From assembly GCA_965649115.1 (NCBI GenBank), contig CBFGJN010000017.1:1-31096 (forward strand): a DNA stretch of 31,096 bases, given 5' to 3'. The notes below the pieces were generated by a model, which saw nothing but the letters and a program-made list of their open reading frames with translations, had not been told where the DNA came from and did no database searches. This DNA comes from a candidate division WOR-3 bacterium. Its GTDB lineage: Bacteria; Hydrothermota; Hydrothermia; LBFQ01; DSFT01. Below, piece by piece: positions 1 through 31,096 of this stretch (position 1 is its first letter; every line of letters begins with the position of its first letter). The translations under genes were made by a program, and so were the position numbers.

Positions 1-1930
1 TTTTTGCATCGTAAAAGATTATTTTTTCATTTTTGACTGCTTTTACAAATTCATCTATCCTATCAATTTTACTAAACAAGTTATTACTCTCTTTTAATGA
101 TCTTTTTTCAGCAAATACTAACACTGTCCTCTGCTGGGCATGAGGAGCAAAAGCATGTTCTGGCAAACCTACAACAGCTATCACTCTAAAATAACATAAG
201 AATAGTAATCTTGGTCTTAAATATTCTTCACTATCAAAAAGTGAAAAAGGAAGAACAGCTCCCAATCGTCCTTTTGGATTTAAAAGTTGATACCATCTTT
301 CTACGAAAAGACATTCTGAAGCGTAAGTAACACCTTTTTTAAAATTTAAAAATTCTTTAATCTTAAAGTGATTATACTGGTCTTGTCGTATTTCAAGACT
401 GAAAGGAGGATTAGTTATAATAAAATCGACACCGTGGCCCTCTTTTATACTTTCTAAAGTGCAACCGTGATTTCTCAAAATATAGGGTTCTTTTATAAAT
501 GGTAAAGGTAGATTATCTAATGGCAATAGAACATTTCTTGTGTATACATTTGCTGAACCATCACCATGGATTACCATATTTACTTTACATAAAGCCACTG
601 CTCTTGGCTCATTATCTATACCAAAAAGAATTTTTAAAGCGTTTTCTTTTATATCTTCAATTGGATAATCTTTAAAAATTAGTCTTAGTGCTTCTATTAA
701 GAATGTCCCAGAACCGCAAGAAGGATCAAGAATATATTTATAATTTTTCTTTTTTAAATCCTCAGCTACTTTTTGAATATTCAATGCTTTACATACAAAT
801 CTACAAATATTAGGATGAGTGAAAAATAACCCTCTGCTTTGTCTAAAAATTGAATGCATAAAGTCTAAAAACACATCACCAACAGAATCTTCTCCTAGAA
901 ATCTTAAACTTCTAAGCTTTATTCTTTGAAGATAAGGAACCAGATCTAATAAAATCTTTTCTTTGTCTTTGTGTTGTAAAATTTCTTTATTTCTGGCTTC
1001 TTTTGGATCTTCACCTAAAAGTTGAATTAAAGCATTTTCAAGTAAGGTTTTAATTCTATTATAAAAAGCTGTTTTGTCTAGATAGTCTTCTGGTTTTACT
1101 TGAAAATCTGGTTCTTTGTTTTCTTTTTTTAAAAGCTGAATTTCATCATAAGTTTTAGCAAGAAGTAAGTTAATAATAGTTTCAAAAGCCTTCTCTTCTA
1201 CAATGCCATAATTTCTTAACCCTTGATGTAATTTTTCCTTTAGTAAATTTTTAAGTTCATTTGGATTTTTCACCTCTATTAAGTCATCTTTTGTCAAGGG
1301 TTTTTTATAAAAATATACTTTGTTACCTGATACCTGGGGAGAAGTATCATAAGCAAAAGAAGAATTTCTATTAATTATTTCATCTAAAGAAATTTGTCCA
1401 GTCTCTATCGCTTTATCTATCTCAGGATAAAAGAACCATCTATAAAAAATATTAATTTCATTATTATTAAATGATATCTCATAAGCGATTAAAACTAATG
1501 GATAGGGTTGTTTTATGTCTTTGGCATAGGAGTGAGCAATATTATAAAGTTGCCTCTTAAAATAATTACTAAATTCTGAATCACTTATTTTATGCACAGA
1601 AGTTTTACATTCTACCAAAGCTATGCAACTTCTATCATTATGTACATCTGCTAGTTCTATTTTTATATCTATCCTTTTGGAAGGTGCTCCAACAATGGAT
1701 TTTTCCTCTAAGTAAATAGTTTCAGGCGGGATTTTATGTATTGAAATTAAATCAAGAATTGCTAAACCTCTACCTAATTCCCCCAAAGTATTTTGATTAT
1801 AAGAAGAAATATTTCGAGAGTATTTTTTTCTAAGATTATAAAATAACTGGTTATTTTCTATTTTAACATATTGATTATGGGAAGAAAGAATTTCACTTTT
1901 CAATTTATCTATAAACTTATTTAATATCAT
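1..1930 (-). CDS. Fused restriction endonuclease / N6-adenine methyltransferase (Type IIG or type I-like), 3' end runs off the window
   Basis: Not in the ORF track. Segments translated by hand from ATG 1930 give MILNKFIDKLKSE..., a PD-(D/E)xK-like KRIDIKI...ALVECKT, RGLFFTHPN, motif I YILDPSCGSGTFL (~700-735) and motif IV DFIITNPPF (~400-430). Confidence 0.88.
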   Translation of the reverse strand, partial: MILNKFIDKLKSEILSSHNQYVKIENNQLFYNLRKKYSRNISSYNQNTLGELGRGLAILDLISIHKIPPETIYLEEKSIVGAPSKRIDIKIELADVHNDRSCIALVECKTSVHKISDSEFSNYFKRQLYNIAHSYAKDIKQPYPLVLIAYEISFNNNEINIFYRWFFYPEIDKAIETGQISLDEIINRNSSFAYDTSPQVSGNKVYFYKKPLTKDDLIEVKNPNELKNLLKEKLHQGLRNYGIVEEKAFETIINLLLAKTYDEIQLLKKENKEPDFQVKPEDYLDKTAFYNRIKTLLENALIQLLGEDPKEARNKEILQHKDKEKILLDLVPYLQRIKLRSLRFLGEDSVGDVFLDFMHSIFRQSRGLFFTHPNICRFVCKALNIQKVAEDLKKKNYKYILDPSCGSGTFLIEALRLIFKDYPIEDIKENALKILFGIDNEPRAVALCKVNMVIHGDGSANVYTRNVLLPLDNLPLPFIKEPYILRNHGCTLESIKEGHGVDFIITNPPFSLEIRQDQYNHFKIKEFLNFKKGVTYASECLFVERWYQLLNPKGRLGAVLPFSLFDSEEYLRPRLLFLCYFRVIAVVGLPEHAFAPHAQQRTVLVFAEKRSLKESNNLFSKIDRIDEFVKAVKNEKIIFYDAK

Positions 1931-2215: not shown

Positions 2216-2367
2216 TGTTTTGTCCAAAATGCTTCGTTCAAAAAATTAGGTGAGCGGGAAAAATTGTTAAGTTATTTAATAAATCACTTGATTTTTTGAT
2301 GTTAATTGAAATTATTGATTTTACGGGGTATTTAATGGGGGCAAAATCCCCTGATGGTATAAGAATG
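2216..2367 (+). mobile_element. Degenerate, truncated MITE remnant (A0)
   Basis: Starts TGTTTTGTCCAAAAT (TIR-like) and contains attgttaag...ggggtatttaatgggggcaaaatcccc, matching the left and middle part of the family. Confidence 0.55.
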
Positions 2368-2573
2368 TGCTTTGTCCAATAATTATTTCCAAGTAATTGA
2401 TAACCAATGACTTATGAAAATTTCAAATAAACCTTTGACTTAATGGGGGGGTTGATTGGGGGGCAAAGCCCCCTATAGCCTAAAAATGGGGATTTACAAG
2501 CCGAAGGCTTAATATCAGGGTGGGTGGGAAAAATATAGAAAAATAAATAATTTCAGAATTATTAGACACACCA
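2368..2573 (+). mobile_element. Full-length MITE copy A1 (206 bp)
   Basis: Left TIR TGCTTTGTCCAATAATT, right TIR AATTATTAGACACACCA, two internal GC hairpins and GGGTGGGTGGG. No matching TSD on the left. Confidence 0.85.
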
Positions 2574-2592
2574 AACACCAATTAAAATTATC

Positions 2593-8556: not shown

Positions 8557-8834
8557 TTGTTTATCCAATAGATGGCGTTAAGCCCTTGATAATCAAAGAC
8601 TTATTAAAAATTTATTAGAATGTTTTAAATAATGAAGGAACTCAAAGGGGGGAGTAGAGCTCCAAAGGCAAAAGAACGCTTTTGGGATTATTAAACACAC
8701 TTTTATTAGGGGGTTTAATTGGGGGACAGAACCTCCCAAAGCAAAAAACGGGAATTTATAAGCCAAAGGCTTATTTTGAGGGTGGGTGGGAAAAGATAGA
8801 AAAATAAATAGTTTTAAAACTATTAGACACACCA
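8557..8834 (+). mobile_element. Two decayed MITE copies (B1 ~8557-8700, B2 ~8701-8834)
   Basis: TIR-like TTGTTTATCCAATA at 8557, remnant right end gattattaaacacac, then hairpin taagccaaaggctta, GGGTGGGTGGG and right end TATTAGACACACCA. Confidence 0.7.
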
Positions 8835-8843
8835 ATTTTAAAA

Positions 8844-9049
8844 TGCTTTGCCCAATAGTTATTGTTAAGTCTTTGAATATCAAGGAGTTATAAAATTTTT
8901 ATGGAAATTATTTATTTTGTGGGAGAATTTAATGGGGGAATATGCCCCTCAATGCCGAAATATGGGTATTTTAAAGGCTAAGCTTTATATTTAGGGTGGG
9001 TGGGAAAAGTATAGAAATAATTATATTTTTAGAATTACTAGACACAGCA
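8844..9049 (+). mobile_element. Full-length MITE copy B3 (206 bp)
   Basis: TGCTTTGCCCAATAGTT...AATTACTAGACACAGCA, flanked by ATTTTAAAA and ATTTAGAAT (6/9 match). Confidence 0.85.
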
Positions 9050-10147
9050 ATTTAGAATAATTTCTATAAATTTTTTTCTTATAATATCAGGGTGAAAATT
9101 TTCAATAGCAAATTTCCTTGCATTTTCAGAAATTTTTTCTCTTAAACTTTTATCTAAAAGGAGAAGTTTAATATAATAATATAGCATTTCTTTATCACCA
9201 GGATTTATTAAAATTCCATTTTCTAAGTGATTAATTATATCCTTATTTGCTCCAACAGGTGTTGTTATAACTGCTAAACCACTAACCATAGCTTCCAAAA
9301 CTGCCATAGAAAAACCTTCTGAATAACTTGGAAGAACAAAAATATCACAAGTTTCATAAATTTTCAATTTATCATAACCGAATGCTCTTTGAATGTACTT
9401 TACTCTTGGATGATTTATTTGAAAAAATGGTTCTATATTTAATTTTTCGCCTGTTATTTGGTTATAGAATATATTCGTTTCTTTTTCCATTCTTTCACCA
9501 AGAAATATAAATTCAACTTCCTTAAATTCATTTAAAATTTTTACAGCAACATTCAATAAATCATTATAACCTTTTGCATATGTTAATAAACCCACAAATA
9601 AAATTTTATTACCTTCCCTCCTTGGATTTATATTTAGAAACATTTCTTCAAAAGCATTAGGCAAAACCTCTAATTTATTATCATAATTTTTAAACTGCTC
9701 CTTTAAACTTTCACTTTGAACAATAATTTTACAACTTCTATTTAAGCAAAATTTTATTAATCTCTTAAAAATTTTAGAATTTAATTTTTCATAGAAAATT
9801 TTAAAATGACCTCCACGCATATGAACTATAATTTTTTTATTTAAAAGAATAGCGGGAAATAAAATTAAAAAATCCCTAATCCATCCAAACTTTGTAGCAG
9901 TTATACAATGATAAACAAAATGAGGATTGAAAAAAATTAGCTGAAAAATATATTTAAGATAAATTAATAAAAATTTAATAAATGCTGAAATTGAAAATCT
10001 CCCTCTTTTTAACTTATTTTTTCTAACACTAACATTAATTATTTTTACTTTTAGATTATCAAATGGTTTAGAAAATAAAATTTTGCTTGAAATTTCTGGT
10101 CCAGAATAAGGTGGAGGAAGTGGAACAAGAGCTAATAACTTCTTCAA
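9038..10147 (-). CDS. GT4 family glycosyltransferase
   Basis: ILFVGLL...KG and DIFVLPSYSEGFSMAVLEAM. The last 3 codons and the stop come from the MITE TIR. Confidence 0.92.
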   Translation of the reverse strand: MKKLLALVPLPPPYSGPEISSKILFSKPFDNLKVKIINVSVRKNKLKRGRFSISAFIKFLLIYLKYIFQLIFFNPHFVYHCITATKFGWIRDFLILFPAILLNKKIIVHMRGGHFKIFYEKLNSKIFKRLIKFCLNRSCKIIVQSESLKEQFKNYDNKLEVLPNAFEEMFLNINPRREGNKILFVGLLTYAKGYNDLLNVAVKILNEFKEVEFIFLGERMEKETNIFYNQITGEKLNIEPFFQINHPRVKYIQRAFGYDKLKIYETCDIFVLPSYSEGFSMAVLEAMVSGLAVITTPVGANKDIINHLENGILINPGDKEMLYYYIKLLLLDKSLREKISENARKFAIENFHPDIIRKKFIEIILNCCV

Positions 10148-11025: not shown

Positions 11026-11097
11026 AGGCGACTCCCGGAATCGAACCGGGGTAAAGCGGTTTTGCAAACCGCCGCCTAGCCACTCGGCCAAGTCGCC
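11026..11097 (-). tRNA. tRNA-Cys(GCA), CCA not encoded
   Basis: GGCGACT/AGTCGCC acceptor stem, GCGGT-TTGCAAA-ACCGC anticodon arm, CCCGG-TTCGATT-CCGGG T arm, U discriminator. Confidence 0.96.
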
Positions 11098-11125: not shown

Positions 11126-11345
11126 GGAAATATAGAAAAATAGATATTTTTAATTACTAGACAAAACATCACTTTTTTGCTTTGTCCAGTAAATAATGTT
11201 AAGTAATTTGATTTATCGGGGGTTTTAAAGGGGGGCAAAGCCCCCCGAAGCCGAAATATGGGTATTTTAAAGCCAAAGGCTTAAATATAGGGTGGGTGGG
11301 GAAAATATAGAAATAATCATATTTTTAGAATTACTAGACAAAACA
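11126..11345 (+). mobile_element. MITE array C: right-end remnant (11126-11168) plus internally deleted copy (11178-11345)
   Basis: Both copies end ACTAGACAAAACA, followed by TCACTTTTT (11169-11177) and TCATTTTTT (11346-11354). Confidence 0.85.
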
Positions 11346-11372
11346 TCATTTTTTTGCTTTAAACTTTTAAGT

Positions 11373-12158
11373 ATGAAAGATAAAGAATATTTAATAAAAG
11401 AATTTGAAGATTTGTTAAATTTATTAAGAGAAAGACCTGATTACCTTGAAAAATTAAGGATTTTAATTTTAACAAATGAATTATTAGAATTACCAATAAA
11501 ATTTGAAGAGTTTAGAAATGAAGTAAATAAAAGATTTGATGTATTAGAAAAGGGGCAAGAAGAAATAAAATTAAGACAGCAGAGAATAGAAGAAAGACAG
11601 CAGAGAATGGAAGAAATACAACAGAGAATAGAAGAAAGACAGGAGAGAATGGAAGAAAGACAACAGAGAATGGAAGAAAGACAGCAGAGAATGGAAGAAA
11701 GACAACAGAGAATGGAAGAAAGACAAGACAACATGGAGATTAGATTAAACAATGTTTCTGGGTGGCAATTAGAGCATAAAGTAAGGATAAATATATGTGC
11801 TTATGTTGGGAAGTACATAAAGAAGTGTAAGATAAAAGATAAAGGGAAAATGGCTGATGAATTAGATGAATATGTTGAAAGTAATATAATAAGTGAGAGT
11901 GAGAGGGATGATGTTTTACTACTAGATATATTAGTTAGTGGAATATCAAAGAGGACGAAAGAGGAGGTTTATATAGCTATTGAAGTTTCGTATAAAATCG
12001 GAGAGTATGATATTGAGAGAGTTATCAAGAGGAAGGAAATTTTGGAGAGGGTATATAAAAAGGAGGTTATTCCACTTTTAATTGGAAAGGAAATTTCAGA
12101 TGAAATGAGGAACAAACTGAAAAATTTAAATATTGATTTTATTTTAGTTAATGATTAG
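11373..12158 (+). CDS. Heptad-repeat coiled-coil protein with C-terminal PD-(D/E)xK-like domain (DUF3782/DUF1626-like)
   Basis: Start ATG 11373 (the track start lies inside the MITE). RQQRMEE repeats and LDILVSG...YIAIEVSYKIGEYDIERV. Confidence 0.75.
   Translation: MKDKEYLIKEFEDLLNLLRERPDYLEKLRILILTNELLELPIKFEEFRNEVNKRFDVLEKGQEEIKLRQQRIEERQQRMEEIQQRIEERQERMEERQQRMEERQQRMEERQQRMEERQDNMEIRLNNVSGWQLEHKVRINICAYVGKYIKKCKIKDKGKMADELDEYVESNIISESERDDVLLLDILVSGISKRTKEEVYIAIEVSYKIGEYDIERVIKRKEILERVYKKEVIPLLIGKEISDEMRNKLKNLNIDFILVND
11574..11741 (+). repeat. 21-bp coding tandem repeat, 7 copies plus 1 degenerate
   Basis: AGACARCAGAGAATRGAAGAA units read directly from the sequence. Confidence 0.95.
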
Positions 12159-15284: not shown

Positions 15285-15890
15285 ATGGTTTTCTTTTATG
15301 AATTTTCTTCTTTAAGTCATTATAATAGCCCTATTTCAAGTCTCTATGCACCTCAATTTTTAAATGAAAATTTCAAAATTGAAAGTTTTATTAGAAGAGA
15401 TTTTAATTTAATAAATAGGTATGGATTTGGAATAAGCTATAAGTATATCGGTTTCTTTTGGTATAGTCTAAATGTTGAAGAAGAATTTATAAACACAATT
15501 TCATTTGGTATGAACATTTTTAATATAGGCTCAAATGTTATTTATCAATATCCAAATAAAGCAAATTTTGGAATTGGTTTCAATAGAGTATTTTTAAATT
15601 TCAATATATGCGCTTATACATTAATAGGAAAATTTTCTTATGTTTGTTCTTTTTTTGAATATAAAAATGTCTTTTTAGGATTTGATATTTATCTTGAAAA
15701 AAATTTTCCAATTGATTATAGGTTTTTTATTTCTTATAAAATAAGCGAAAATTCCTCAATTCAAATAAGTTCCTCAACAAACATAAATAGTTTCTCTATT
15801 GGATATAAATATAAGTTCTTTATATTAAATTATTTTTATCATAGTTATCTTGGAGATAGCTTTGGATTTAGGTTAATCTATGAAAAATAG
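15285..15890 (+). CDS. Hypothetical protein, possibly outer-membrane beta-barrel
   Basis: Alternating aromatic/Gly beta-strand pattern; ends HSYLGDSFGFRLIY. Confidence 0.55.
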   Translation: MVFFYEFSSLSHYNSPISSLYAPQFLNENFKIESFIRRDFNLINRYGFGISYKYIGFFWYSLNVEEEFINTISFGMNIFNIGSNVIYQYPNKANFGIGFNRVFLNFNICAYTLIGKFSYVCSFFEYKNVFLGFDIYLEKNFPIDYRFFISYKISENSSIQISSSTNINSFSIGYKYKFFILNYFYHSYLGDSFGFRLIYEK

Positions 15891-16647
15891 AATTGGAATA
15901 ATTGGATATGGCAATGTAGGAGGCTCAATAGCACTTTATTTTGAAAAAAAAAGAAGAAAAGTTTTTGTTTTAACCTCAAAACTTTTGAAAAATAAAAAAT
16001 TTATAAATTTCTTTAACTATAATCAAATTCAGGAATTCATAGATTCAGTTGATATTATTTTAATATGTGTAAGAGATGATAAAATTGAAAGCATAATAGA
16101 AATTCTTAAAAAATTTTCAATTAAAAATAAAATTATTTATCATACAAGCGGTTCATTAACAAGTGATATTCTAAAAACACTAAAAAATAATTATGTCGGA
16201 AGTTTTCATCCTATTCAGACATTTCCAAAACCAAACCCAAAACTACTAGAAAATATCTACTTTTCTTTTGAAGGTGAGAAATATAAAATCGCTAAAAGTT
16301 TAGCTAATTTTTTTAAGAGCAAAATTATAAAAATTAAAAAAGAAAATAAACTATTATATCATGTTGCTTGTATATTTGCAAGCAATTTTCCAAATTTTCT
16401 TTTAACTATTGCTGATGAATTAATTAAAATATCTACTAATAAAAATTACAAAATTCTAATTCCTCTTATACAAACAAGCTTAAAAAATGCTATTGTTTAT
16501 GGTCCAAAAAATGCCTTAACAGGTCCCGCTAAAAGAAAAGATATAAAATTAATAAAAAATCATTTAAAATTCTTAAAAACATTCAACCCTGATATTTACA
16601 AACTATATAAAATTATTTCAGAAATGATTTTAAAAGATAAATTCTAA
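15880..16647 (+). CDS. Rossmann-like plus DUF2520 oxidoreductase
   Basis: GIIGYGNVG, HTSGS, SFHPIQTF, LYHVAC.FASN and ALTGPAKR. Confidence 0.9.
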   Translation: MKNRIGIIGYGNVGGSIALYFEKKRRKVFVLTSKLLKNKKFINFFNYNQIQEFIDSVDIILICVRDDKIESIIEILKKFSIKNKIIYHTSGSLTSDILKTLKNNYVGSFHPIQTFPKPNPKLLENIYFSFEGEKYKIAKSLANFFKSKIIKIKKENKLLYHVACIFASNFPNFLLTIADELIKISTNKNYKILIPLIQTSLKNAIVYGPKNALTGPAKRKDIKLIKNHLKFLKTFNPDIYKLYKIISEMILKDKF

Positions 16648-17167
16648 ATTAAGTTACTGAAATTCTTGATTTTTCGCGGAGAATTATTGGAGGCGAAGCC
16701 CCCGAGGCATAAAAATGGGGTATTTATAAGGCTCCGCCTTATTTTCAGGGTGGGTGGGCAAGACATAAAAAAATAAATAGTTTCAGAATTACTGGACACA
16801 GCAACCCACCACTGCTTTGTCTAGTAAATAGTGTTAAGTAATTGATTATCAACGATTTATAAAAATTTTAAGAAAATTATTAATTTTACGGGGGTTTTAA
16901 GGAGGACAGAGCTTTAAAAGCGAAGCCTTGAATACAGGGTTAGTGGGCAAAATATAGAAAAATAAATGATTTTAGAATTACTAGACACAGCAACGCACTA
17001 CTGCTTTGTCCAATAATTATTGTTAAGCGATTGATAATCAATAATTTATAAAATTTTTAAGGAAATTGTTGATTTATTGGGGGGATTATTAGGGGGGCTC
17101 TGCCTTAAAGCCGAAGGCTTTTGAAAAATAAATAATTCCAGAATTATTGGACAAGGCAACGCACTAC
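16648..17167 (+). mobile_element. MITE array D: three tandem copies (~16648-16803, 16813-16992, 17002-17158), each followed by a 9-bp duplication
   Basis: Spacers ACCCACCAC (16804-16812), ACGCACTAC (16993-17001) and ACGCACTAC (17159-17167). Confidence 0.92.
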
Positions 17168-17193
17168 TAAATTTCAGCTTTAAAATTTTAATT

Positions 17194-17661
17194 ATGAAAC
17201 TTGATATTGAACTTTTAGTTGAATTGATAAAAAAAGGAAAAAACCAATATATTATAAATAAAGAAACGGGACAAGTTTTTGAAATAAGTAATAAAATTTT
17301 AGATGCAGTTGAAGATGACTATTATGAACATTTAACTAATGAAGAAATGGAATCTGCTAATGTTTTAAAAGAAATGTGGGAAGGTTCAAGTAAGTACGAG
17401 TTTATTCCAAAAATTTCAGAAGGTGATTTAATAAATATCGTAATGGAAATTGTTGAAAGCCTAGATAAAGAAGACAATTTAAGGGAAATTTTGATGGAGA
17501 TTGTATCATCAGGTGGCATTTATAAAAAAATAAATTATCTAATAGTCAATTACAAAGGATTTTATGAAATTTACGATAAGTTTCTTACTGATTATTTAAG
17601 AAGAAAACTTAAAAGTTGGGCTTTATCAGTGGGTTTTGAAATTATTGAACCAGAGGAATAA
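17194..17661 (+). CDS. UPF0158-like protein
   Basis: YIINKETGQV...YEFIPKI...KSWA pattern, acidic. Confidence 0.6.
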   Translation: MKLDIELLVELIKKGKNQYIINKETGQVFEISNKILDAVEDDYYEHLTNEEMESANVLKEMWEGSSKYEFIPKISEGDLINIVMEIVESLDKEDNLREILMEIVSSGGIYKKINYLIVNYKGFYEIYDKFLTDYLRRKLKSWALSVGFEIIEPEE

Positions 17662-25653: not shown

Positions 25654-25984
25654 AGTAATGTTAAATTACTTATTTAATTTGCTTTGATTTAAAGCTCCCC
25701 CAGGCAAAAAATGGGGTATTTATAAGGCTCCACCTTATTTTCAGAATTATTGGACAAGGCACTTTTAATATGCTTTGTCTAATAATTATTGTTAACTTAT
25801 TGATTGTCAATAACTTATAAAAATTTTAAGAAAATTATAGTTTTTATGGGGGGTTTTTAATGGGGGCTTCGCCCCCCATGGCCGAAAAATGGGTATTTAT
25901 AAGGCGAAGCCTTATTCATAGGGTGGGTGGGGAAAATATAGAAAATATATATTTTTAGAATTACTAGACAAAACACTTTTAATA
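25654..25984 (+). mobile_element. MITE array E: decayed copy (~25654-25761) plus full copy (25771-25975) with perfect 9-bp TSD
   Basis: CTTTTAATA at 25762-25770 and 25976-25984; TIRs TGCTTTGTCTAATAATT and AATTACTAGACAAAACA. Confidence 0.92.
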
Positions 25985-26010
25985 AAACTTTTTACTTTAA
26001 AATTTTCATT

Positions 26011-27192
26011 ATGCGTTCTGCGGTAATCGTAAGTGCTAAAAGAACAGCAGTAGGAAAAGCTCCAAGAGGAACATTGAAGGACACAAGACCAGAATATTTA
26101 TTAGCAGAAGTTATAAAAGCAATTTTAAATGAAACGAATTTAGATCCTAACTTAATAGAAGATTTAACAGTGGGGTGTGCTTTTCCCGAAGCCTACCAAG
26201 GTATGAATATGGCAAGAACAGTTGTTTATAGAGCAGGGCTTCCCACTTCCATTCCAGCAGTTACAGTTAATAGATATTGTGCTTCTTCAATTCAATCAAT
26301 AGCTCAAACAGCTCATAGAATTATGGTTGGAGAAATTGATGTGGCAATAGCAGGTGGAGCTGAAAGCATGAGTTTAGTTCCTATGCCGGGATATGTTTTT
26401 AGACCAGAACCTTATATTGCTCAAAATTTCCCTGATTATTATTTAAATATGGGTCTTACAGCAGAAAATTTAGTTCCATTATATAACATAAAAAGAGAAG
26501 AAGTAGATCAATATGCTTATTTATCTCATAAAAGAGGAGCAGAAGCAGTTTTAAGTGGAAAATTTAAAGAGCAAATAGTTCCTATTAAAGTAAAAGTTAG
26601 ATTAGAAGATGAAGATAGTAATAGTCAATTGGTTGAGAAAATTTTTGATCAAGATGAATGTATTAGACCTGATACAACACTTGAAGGACTATTAAATTTA
26701 AAACCCTACTTTAAAGTAGATGGAACAGTTACCGCTGGAAATGCTTCACAAAGAAGTGATGGAGCGGGAGCAGTTCTTATTATGAGTGAAGAAAAGGCAA
26801 AAGAACTTGGACTTAAACCATTAGCAAGATTTATAACCTATCAAGTTTCAGCAGTTCCAGCAGAAATTATGGGAATAGCACCAGCTTACGCAATTCCAAA
26901 ATCACTTAAAAAAGCTAACTTAACATTAGAAGACATCAAACTTATTGAACTAAACGAAGCATTTGCTACACAAATAGTAGCTGTTCTAAGAGAATTAGAA
27001 ATACCATTGGATAAATTAAATGTAAATGGAGGTGCCATTTCACTTGGTCATCCACTTGGAGCAACTGGTTCCATTTTAACAGTTAAACTTATTTACGAAT
27101 TAAGAAAAAGAGGTGGAGGTTATGGAATTGTAAGTGCTTGTGTTGGAGGAGGAATGGGAGCAAGTATGATTTTGGAGGTATATGGAAGTTAA
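26011..27192 (+). CDS. Acetyl-CoA C-acyltransferase (thiolase)
   Basis: NRYCASS, NEAFA, GHPLGATG and CVGGGMG. Confidence 0.96.
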   Translation: MRSAVIVSAKRTAVGKAPRGTLKDTRPEYLLAEVIKAILNETNLDPNLIEDLTVGCAFPEAYQGMNMARTVVYRAGLPTSIPAVTVNRYCASSIQSIAQTAHRIMVGEIDVAIAGGAESMSLVPMPGYVFRPEPYIAQNFPDYYLNMGLTAENLVPLYNIKREEVDQYAYLSHKRGAEAVLSGKFKEQIVPIKVKVRLEDEDSNSQLVEKIFDQDECIRPDTTLEGLLNLKPYFKVDGTVTAGNASQRSDGAGAVLIMSEEKAKELGLKPLARFITYQVSAVPAEIMGIAPAYAIPKSLKKANLTLEDIKLIELNEAFATQIVAVLRELEIPLDKLNVNGGAISLGHPLGATGSILTVKLIYELRKRGGGYGIVSACVGGGMGASMILEVYGS

Positions 27193-30970: not shown

Positions 30971-31096
30971 TGCCTTGTCCAATAATTCCCCCTCTACCTT
31001 CCCTATGGATACCCCCACTATATTTTAACTCATCCCCTCCCATATCAACCCCTCAATCAGCCAAATTACTATAACTATAAAAACTATTCATTATCA
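30971..31096 (-). mobile_element. Right end of a probable autonomous IS (IS5 family, IS903-like), cut by the window edge
   Basis: Reverse complement ends GAATTATTGGACAAGGCA, identical to MITE ends at 17141-17158 and 25744-25761, but the interior is unrelated. One minus frame is open to the edge (...IMNSFYSYSNLAD*, stop 31053-31055). Confidence 0.7.

Follow-up and report, generated by a model that had tools for sequence, protein, structure and literature searches.

The window analysed here is the entire 31,096-base contig C17 of a draft genome (G000; 1.85 Mb, 99 contigs, 27.6% G+C). Positions 16648-17193 form the spacer between gene 15880-16647, whose product belongs to the DUF2520 family, and gene 17194-17661, for which no family was found. 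This spacer contains array D, which consists of three head-to-tail MITE copies (D1, D2 and D3) at 16653-17167 on the plus strand, and direct reading gave ACCCACCAC, ACGCACTAC and ACGCACTAC as the 9-mers that follow the three copies. D1 (16653..16803, located with nhmmer) is the oldest of the stack. It starts 5 nt past the stop codon of gene 15880-16647, is truncated at its 5' side (model positions 54-205) and retains an intact right inverted repeat; its identity is 0.845 to the nearest copy elsewhere and 0.71 to its array-mates. The junction 9-mer that follows, ACCCACCAC (16804..16812), differs by two changes from both other 9-mers of the array. The middle copy, D2 (16813..16992), possesses both inverted repeats and an internal deletion, and its nearest copy elsewhere is identical to the extent of 0.87. 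The youngest, promoter-proximal copy is D3 (17002..17158), with ACGCACTAC as its left (16993..17001) and right (17159..17167) target duplication. The shortness of D3 reflects neither decay nor age but its membership of a short subfamily that lacks the GGGTGGGTGGG module, and four copies at other places, at least three of them at contig ends, are 100% identical to it over the shared aligned columns. The remaining segment, 17168..17193, comprises a 10-nt TAAATTTCAG, the box CTTTAAAAT at 17178-17186 and 7 nt leading to the ATG at 17194; given its position, this box is probably the -10 promoter element of a leaderless gene.

Intact copies start with TGCTTTGTCYARTAA and end with TTAYTRGACAMAGCA, which are mutually inverted repeats. 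A scan of 16500-17300 for two-hexamer promoters and terminators returned nothing inside array D, and the Rfam scan of the window matched only a tRNA, so that the MITE repeat contains no known RNA family. The hairpin at the junction (-8.7 and -5.3 kcal/mol) was considered and set aside as a meaningful feature, since it is expected from the inverted repeats anyway and adds nothing.

The other arrays of the window are likewise on the plus strand. Array A (2259..2582) comprises a decayed A1 (2259-2363), a full A2 (2368-2573) and the 9-mer AACACCAAT (2574-2582), with a box at 2593-2601 and an ATG at 2609. Array B (8560..9058) contains B1 (8560-8675), B2 (8700-8834), ATTTTAAAA, B3 (8844-9049) and ATTTAGAAT; it lies between convergent genes and its right side has no box. 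Array C (11127..11354) contains a 3' fragment, C1 (to 11168), then TCACTTTTT, C2 (11178-11345), which has a 100% identical copy at C50:3148, and TCATTTTTT, immediately followed by TGCTTTAAAC in what we refer to below as the second register, with an ATG at 11373. Finally, array E (25680..25984) comprises an internally deleted E1 (25680-25761) and a full E2 (25771-25975), each followed by CTTTTAATA, and downstream of it a box at 25995-26003 and an ATG at 26011. The identity to the nearest copy anywhere increases along array B (0.78, 0.86, 0.94) as it does along array D (0.845, 0.87, 1.00), and all copies of the window have nearer relatives on other contigs than within their own array.

The five arrays of alternating elements and target duplications proposed in the initial annotation all exist, and for array D this alternation can be read directly. 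In array A, by contrast, the 9 nt to the left of A2 (ATAAGAATG) are part of the interior of the decayed A1 and do not represent a target duplication, and array B has no box to its right. The leftmost copy is indeed truncated or decayed in five of the five arrays, and the strings quoted as common to D1 and E1 and to B3, C2 and E2 are present.

With regard to the remaining content of the window, a tRNA gene (11026-11097, minus strand) is accompanied by a CCTTTAAAAT box of its own, situated immediately to its right on the minus strand, and array C occupies the space between this box and that of gene 11373, that is, between two putative diverging promoters. Within the frame 11373-12158, a 21-nt unit is repeated 7.3 times at 11573-11725 (90% matches) and hence encodes a heptapeptide repeat; the protein has six matches in G002, the closest congener, which points to membership of a small paralogous family. 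The open-ended 643-aa frame at 2-1930 (minus strand) carries N6_Mtase, Eco57I and MmeI-type methyltransferase domains and probably represents a restriction-modification enzyme of type IIG/IIL that is cut off where the contig ends. Public sequencing runs labelled as hot-springs metagenome contain the stretch that forms the window.

Two rounds of nhmmer over the genome yielded 750 MITE copies or fragments (372 plus, 378 minus), amounting to 101,396 bases or 5.5% of the genome, of which 230 are full length. Of the 451 loci over which they are distributed, 191 have more than one hit; stacks of one, two, three and four hits number 260, 112, 58 and 17, respectively, and 4 are larger. The consensus is 206 nt long (copies are approximately 205 nt) and possesses 15-nt terminal inverted repeats, which were present at both ends of 197 two-ended copies. 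Among the 186 two-ended copies with enough flank, the left and right 9 nt were the same in 82 and differed by one mismatch in 10, compared with 19 of 3720 (0.5%) when partners were shuffled. Intact head-to-tail junctions (n=103) measured exactly 9 nt in 87 cases and 8 nt in 7. The element is small and has no transposase gene, but its termini match both types of parent end found at 26 contig ends of the same genome; what it shares with the parent is limited to approximately 24 nt of the left end and 18 nt of the right end. Taken with the empty sites in relatives described below, the terminal repeats and the 9-bp duplication identify the repeat as a non-autonomous MITE with a 9-bp target duplication. 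Contig ends frequently fall within young MITE copies or approximately 125 nt inside the parent element; this family accounts for most of the breaks in the draft, and all copy counts are lower bounds.

The matches to the terminal repeats outside the MITE hits correspond to two recurrent sequences that are located exclusively at contig ends. The parent right end was found at 16 contig ends, which carry its first 28 nt, and the 14 ends that BLAST retrieved were 100% identical; the left end was found at 10 contig ends in at least two variants. The left end carries its own TTTAAAATTTT box, followed by an ATG that opens the reading MGK(I/V)NWQ.YNKELVRRGEIW, and the protein fragment encoded there matches NCBIfam NF033579 (IS5 family) with E = 1e-5, the fragments of this genome alone giving 23-25 bits. 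One right end lies in the window (30971..31096, minus strand), cut by the contig end, and encodes the last 13 residues and stop codon of the transposase. It is situated upstream of a minus-strand gene (frame end at about 30920), approximately 35 nt from a CACTTTAAAAT box and outside the usual register. A word search of a protein collection with the 56-residue fragment from the left end returned a single protein, P0001, which has 300 aa, is 92% identical to the fragment and ends with the C-terminus IMNSFYSYSNLAD encoded at 30971-31096; P0001 comes from that collection and is linked to the parent element by its two ends alone. It contains the domains PF13737 and PF01609, scores 245.5 bits on NF033579 (cut-off 140) and exhibits 26% identity to IS903B transposases (residues 4-290 of 300) and 30% to ISVa1 (1-290). 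Target duplications of IS903B are 9 bp (PMC13618097); those of the parent could be seen as 9-mers between MITE ends and parent ends only. Judged by these sequence features, the parent is assigned to the IS5 family as an IS903-like element with a predicted DDE transposase. Its length of about 1.05 kb had to be inferred from the 300 aa and the end sequences, because the interior of the element is absent from the assembly.

Several searches for a complete parent gave no match. In this genome, the PF01609 and PF00872 profiles detected nothing, and neither did a search for long pairs of terminal repeats with matching 9-mers. A search for the parent right end gave no match in 60 relatives, save for one weak one in G002, and an NF033579 search of four congeners returned no complete copy. 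A metagenome scan for the transposase retrieved only distant relatives (N-terminus 37-45% identical), and a comparison of P0001 with solved structures yielded no relative at E <= 0.1.

The positions at which the elements reside are far from arbitrary. Among 324 terminal copies, the box CTTTAAAAT (at most one mismatch) was found in fixed registers after the right end in 227. It begins 19 nt after the right end in 127 copies, 18 nt in 41 and 20 nt in 4, giving a total of 172 for the 18-20-nt register; a distance of 10-13 nt was observed in 55 and of 21-66 nt in 8, and in 78 copies no box is present within 80 nt. Left ends that face non-element DNA have a box outward in the same registers in only 10 of 141 cases. 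The parent behaves similarly: of its 16 right ends, 12 conform to the 18/19-nt register, and several of its left ends follow a MITE right end plus 9-mer. Since the 14 parent right ends compared are 100% identical, they are recent, so that the youngest insertions of the genome follow the register.

The box itself is abundant: CTTTAAAAT(TTT) has 882 exact copies in the genome, as opposed to 149 expected, and in 372 of them an ATG lies 6-11 nt downstream. It also precedes tRNA 5' ends and Shine-Dalgarno (AGGAGG) leaders. In 626 element-free box sites, no conservation upstream of the box and no conserved -35 region was detected. On account of its position and conservation, we read the box as a probable -10 promoter element, many genes being apparently leaderless; an abundant box without a -35 region suggests -10-only promoters and widespread leaderless mRNAs. 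The element or its MITE occupies 256 of the 882 boxes (approximately 29%). Of 115 box-adjacent copies, 70 have a clean stack behind them, as against 5 of 27 box-less copies, array B being one of the latter five, which represents a threefold difference.

In the second register, the order is 9-mer, 2 nt and box. This arrangement may be a true alternative site, as matching duplications were found in 14 of 27 copies. It may also be the footprint of a proximal copy that was lost through the GCTTT common to the left repeat and the box, as 11 of the 27 start with TG.

Stacks of this kind could in principle arise from a resident copy that was doubled, either by local tandem duplication or by dimers made by an IS30- or IS21-type transposase, with the 9-mer as the joint. 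In favour of this explanation, the junction spacer has the same length as the target duplication, and bacteria are known to form tandem dimers whose joint contains a duplication (PMC5932611). The copies of a stack should then be each other's nearest relatives, and they are not. Identities were taken from a model-column alignment of all hits, in which 282 copies had a comparable array-mate. The array-mate was the nearest relative in 0 of these 282, its best rank had a median of 194 out of approximately 531, and the median identity was 0.77 to the best array-mate versus 0.89 to the best copy elsewhere, the family-wide pairwise median being 0.75. Array-mates are therefore no nearer to each other than random family members. 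A FastTree phylogeny was built from the copies that have 150 or more aligned columns (n=283), and on it the array label changed 93 times, compared with 91-98 changes (mean 95.5) in 200 shuffles and 48 for perfect clustering. The remark of the initial annotation that copies are closer to those of other loci than to their neighbours was thereby borne out, and the clustering by locus that it named as a refutation did not appear. These results support the stack copies being independent insertions; local tandem duplication as the main route is already refuted, and dimer formation from a single resident is equally at odds with the 0/282 result, leaving this explanation as a whole extremely improbable.

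The stacks are also polar. Away from contig ends there are 129 arrays with all copies on one strand; the right copy scores higher than the one to its left in 104 of them and exceeds it in length in 97. As a measure of age we used the identity to the nearest copy anywhere, which reflects the time since the last transposition of a lineage. Identity to the family consensus, computed on the right part alone, gave no polarity (36:35), a result that counts against polar stacking; consensus identity is a poor measure of age, and nearest-copy identity was used in its place. By rank from the downstream gene (0-3), nearest-copy identity falls from 0.952 to 0.876, 0.838 and 0.810. Among 114 pairs, the younger member is the right (proximal) copy in 95 (p = 6.5e-14), with the order reversed in the other 19, and the same holds for 59 of 69 pairs with a clean junction and for 19 of 24 pairs in which both copies are full length. 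The 70 stacked copies that are at least 97% identical to another copy are distributed as 57 proximal, 11 second and 2 third. Moreover, the left end is intact in 71% of proximal, 52% of internal and 17% of distal copies. The data thus support growth of the stacks at the promoter-proximal (right) end. This was the direction anticipated in the initial annotation.

Relatives provide a view of the same sites in other states. Many copies of the MITE occur in G002, where the flanking proteins are 90-97% identical, and few in G003; in G001, G004 and 36 more distant genomes the MITE gave weak matches at most. Upstream of the orthologues of gene 17194, the box is kept in G001-G004, and in G001, G003 and G004 there is no copy but GCTTTAAAATTTTAA before the ATG. 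The orthologues of genes 2609 and 26011 likewise have empty sites in these three genomes. At locus A, G002 has a truncated copy, AAAGTAAAT, a full copy and AAAGTCAAT in the same register as in G000, and the terminal 9-mers of the two genomes agree at 6 of 9 positions. At locus E, only a decayed remnant was found in G002, whereas G000 has the remnant and, proximal to it, a young full copy, a difference that fits polar growth. Locus D counts against the explanation favoured below: the G002 contig ends in an element end, which is followed by a different 9-mer, TTTAAAGAG, and a near-identical spacer. In G001, the region upstream of the gene 2609 orthologue (locus L043) contains two diverging boxes back to back, cacttttaaattttaaag and ctttaaaattttgact; in G000, 380 nt of element copies lie between the same two boxes.

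The transposon anatomy, the independence of the copies, the age gradient, the fixed register and orientation, and the family of the parent are established by the comparisons above. The explanation that we favour, and hold with considerable confidence, is that the MITE and its parent repeatedly enter one site upstream of the box, giving polar, chronological stacks. The MITE would be moved in trans by the DDE transposase of the IS5-family, IS903-like parent of the same genome. A staggered cut would be made at a fixed distance upstream of the CTTTAAAAT box, such that 10 nt, or in fewer cases 2 nt, separate the end of the 9-mer from the box. The element's right end would come to face the box, which often lies 6-11 nt before a leaderless ATG. 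The box and the right-hand 9-mer would survive the insertion, with the 9-bp target regenerated beside the box. As these survive, the site would be offered again, and the next copy would enter on the promoter side of the resident one. Older copies would be pushed outward, lose their left parts and decay, resulting in a polar stack. A site that is offered again would account at once for the polarity, the head-to-tail order and the 9-mer that the copies have in common.

The origin of the register itself can be seen in three ways. We infer that it probably stems from targeting, that is, from a transposase or a box-bound protein that reads the box, and not from selection. It could otherwise result from random insertion followed by selection for the register and orientation that spare or help the promoter. 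The genome is compact, and the duplication keeps 9 nt beside the spacer and leaves the promoter downstream of about -35 untouched, both of which are consistent with selection. Selection would nevertheless be expected to leave a plateau upstream of the promoter, whereas 172 copies lie at 18-20 nt and 8 at 21-66 nt. This single-base peak with almost nothing beyond it favours targeting, and 12 of the 16 recent parent right ends are already in register, which makes selection an unlikely source. A further possibility is that elements target themselves, the attractant being the right end of the resident copy and not the box. In its favour, the 5 of 27 box-less copies that are stacked include array B, and, as an impression from the counts, the stack sizes look over-spread for one uniform rate. 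Against this stand 38 box-adjacent copies in the 18-20-nt register that retain the left end intact without a further copy behind, the box register of 12 of 16 parent right ends, and stacking that is three times commoner at box sites (70/115 versus 5/27). We consider self-targeting quite improbable.

Ectopic recombination, gene conversion or composite transposition of two copies may also have contributed to the arrays. The flanking 9-mers are unrelated (at least three mismatches) in 92 of the 186 two-ended copies and in 39 of 76 array-proximal ones, which counts against repeated simple insertion; with about half of the flanks unrelated, recombination or composite moves probably also shape the arrays. 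Three arrays (12, 171 and 231) read T0-copy-X-copy-T0, which looks like a joint move of two copies, and the number of G/C-containing junction 9-mers found again at unrelated loci exceeds the approximately 7 coincidences that chance would give overall. In addition, ACCCACCAC and about 65 near-identical nt are common to 16780-16845 of the window and G000:C21:27327-27646, and the two copies that share this patch, on C17 and C21, are only approximately 75% alike elsewhere. On the other hand, two arrays with ACTAACTCT as their common X are only about 77% alike in their bodies, and such processes leave unexplained the fixed register, the age gradient and the matching duplications of 37 of the 76 proximal copies. 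Ectopic recombination, short gene-conversion tracts and composite moves are therefore probably side routes; that they built most of the arrays is very unlikely.

Within the reading of repeated entry upstream of the box, a more specific proposal is that the IS5-family transposase reads the housekeeping promoter, either as the -10 box or as the bound RNA polymerase holoenzyme, and integrates exactly one helical turn upstream in one orientation. We regard the chances for and against this proposal as evenly balanced.

Several known systems come close to the present one. Elements of the IS903 group of the IS5 family share with the present one a DDE transposase of approximately 300 aa (PF13737 and PF01609), a 9-bp duplication and short terminal inverted repeats. 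They differ in that the identity to IS903B and ISVa1 is only 26-30%, in the approximately 750 copies in 1.85 Mb, and in being inserted at a set distance from, and in one orientation to, a promoter-like box. The common view of simple insertion sequences is that they select their targets weakly. Hu and Derbyshire reportedly studied the targets of IS903. In a limited full-text literature search, no report of a promoter-anchored register was found for an IS5-family element or a MITE.

The word "tandem" is absent from the main text of a census of prokaryotic MITEs (PMC11602168). Eukaryotic transposons can insert twice at one target and retain the target duplication at the joint, as described for P element dimers and for R1 in rDNA (PMC5932611). 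According to the same source, dimers form at the sites of strongest preference, and those of the P element near transcription starts (PMC5932611). The present case differs in concerning a bacterial MITE and in showing a clear polarity and age order over approximately 190 loci.

The resemblance to attTn7, which had been drawn in the initial annotation, is a good analogy as far as the logic is concerned, as in both cases a distant sequence sets the site and stays intact after insertion. In arrays of Tn7-like elements, as here, the newest element is nearest to the anchor and the orientation is fixed. Such elements have a 5-bp duplication and a multi-gene transposition module, whereas the duplication here is 9 bp and the mobile unit is a 205-nt MITE or an element with one small transposase gene. 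Furthermore, there are hundreds of anchors instead of one, and with four or more copies stacked, there is no sign of target immunity. The likeness to CRISPR leader-end growth, which had also been proposed, holds in that units are added at one end and their order records time, and is otherwise loose: cas genes and a constant repeat are both lacking, the units are transposon copies that are approximately 75% alike, and the "spacer" between them is the same 9-mer within a stack. Ty3 and the Dictyostelium TRE are eukaryotic retrotransposons that insert at a fixed distance from Pol III genes. What they may have in common with the present element is a safe-haven site set by the transcription machinery or its DNA signal, contact between transposase and RNA polymerase being hypothetical here.

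To the initial annotation, this analysis adds a likely concrete cause, namely a site fixed relative to a promoter-like box that is used by an IS903-like element and its MITE. It also defines, at the level of sequence, a candidate promoter box and what appear to be wide leaderless starts in an uncultured lineage. If the register does result from targeting, it would let the element multiply to 5.5% of the genome, a very high copy number, and leave genes unbroken, and would provide a tractable system for the reading of a distant asymmetric signal by a DDE transposase. The ordered stacks would then record bursts of subfamilies in sequence. A transposase that reads promoters, if this proves to be true, would leave stacks that could serve to date and type strains, and would be a bacterial DDE counterpart of the safe-haven targeting of Ty3 and Tn7, operating at hundreds of promoters.
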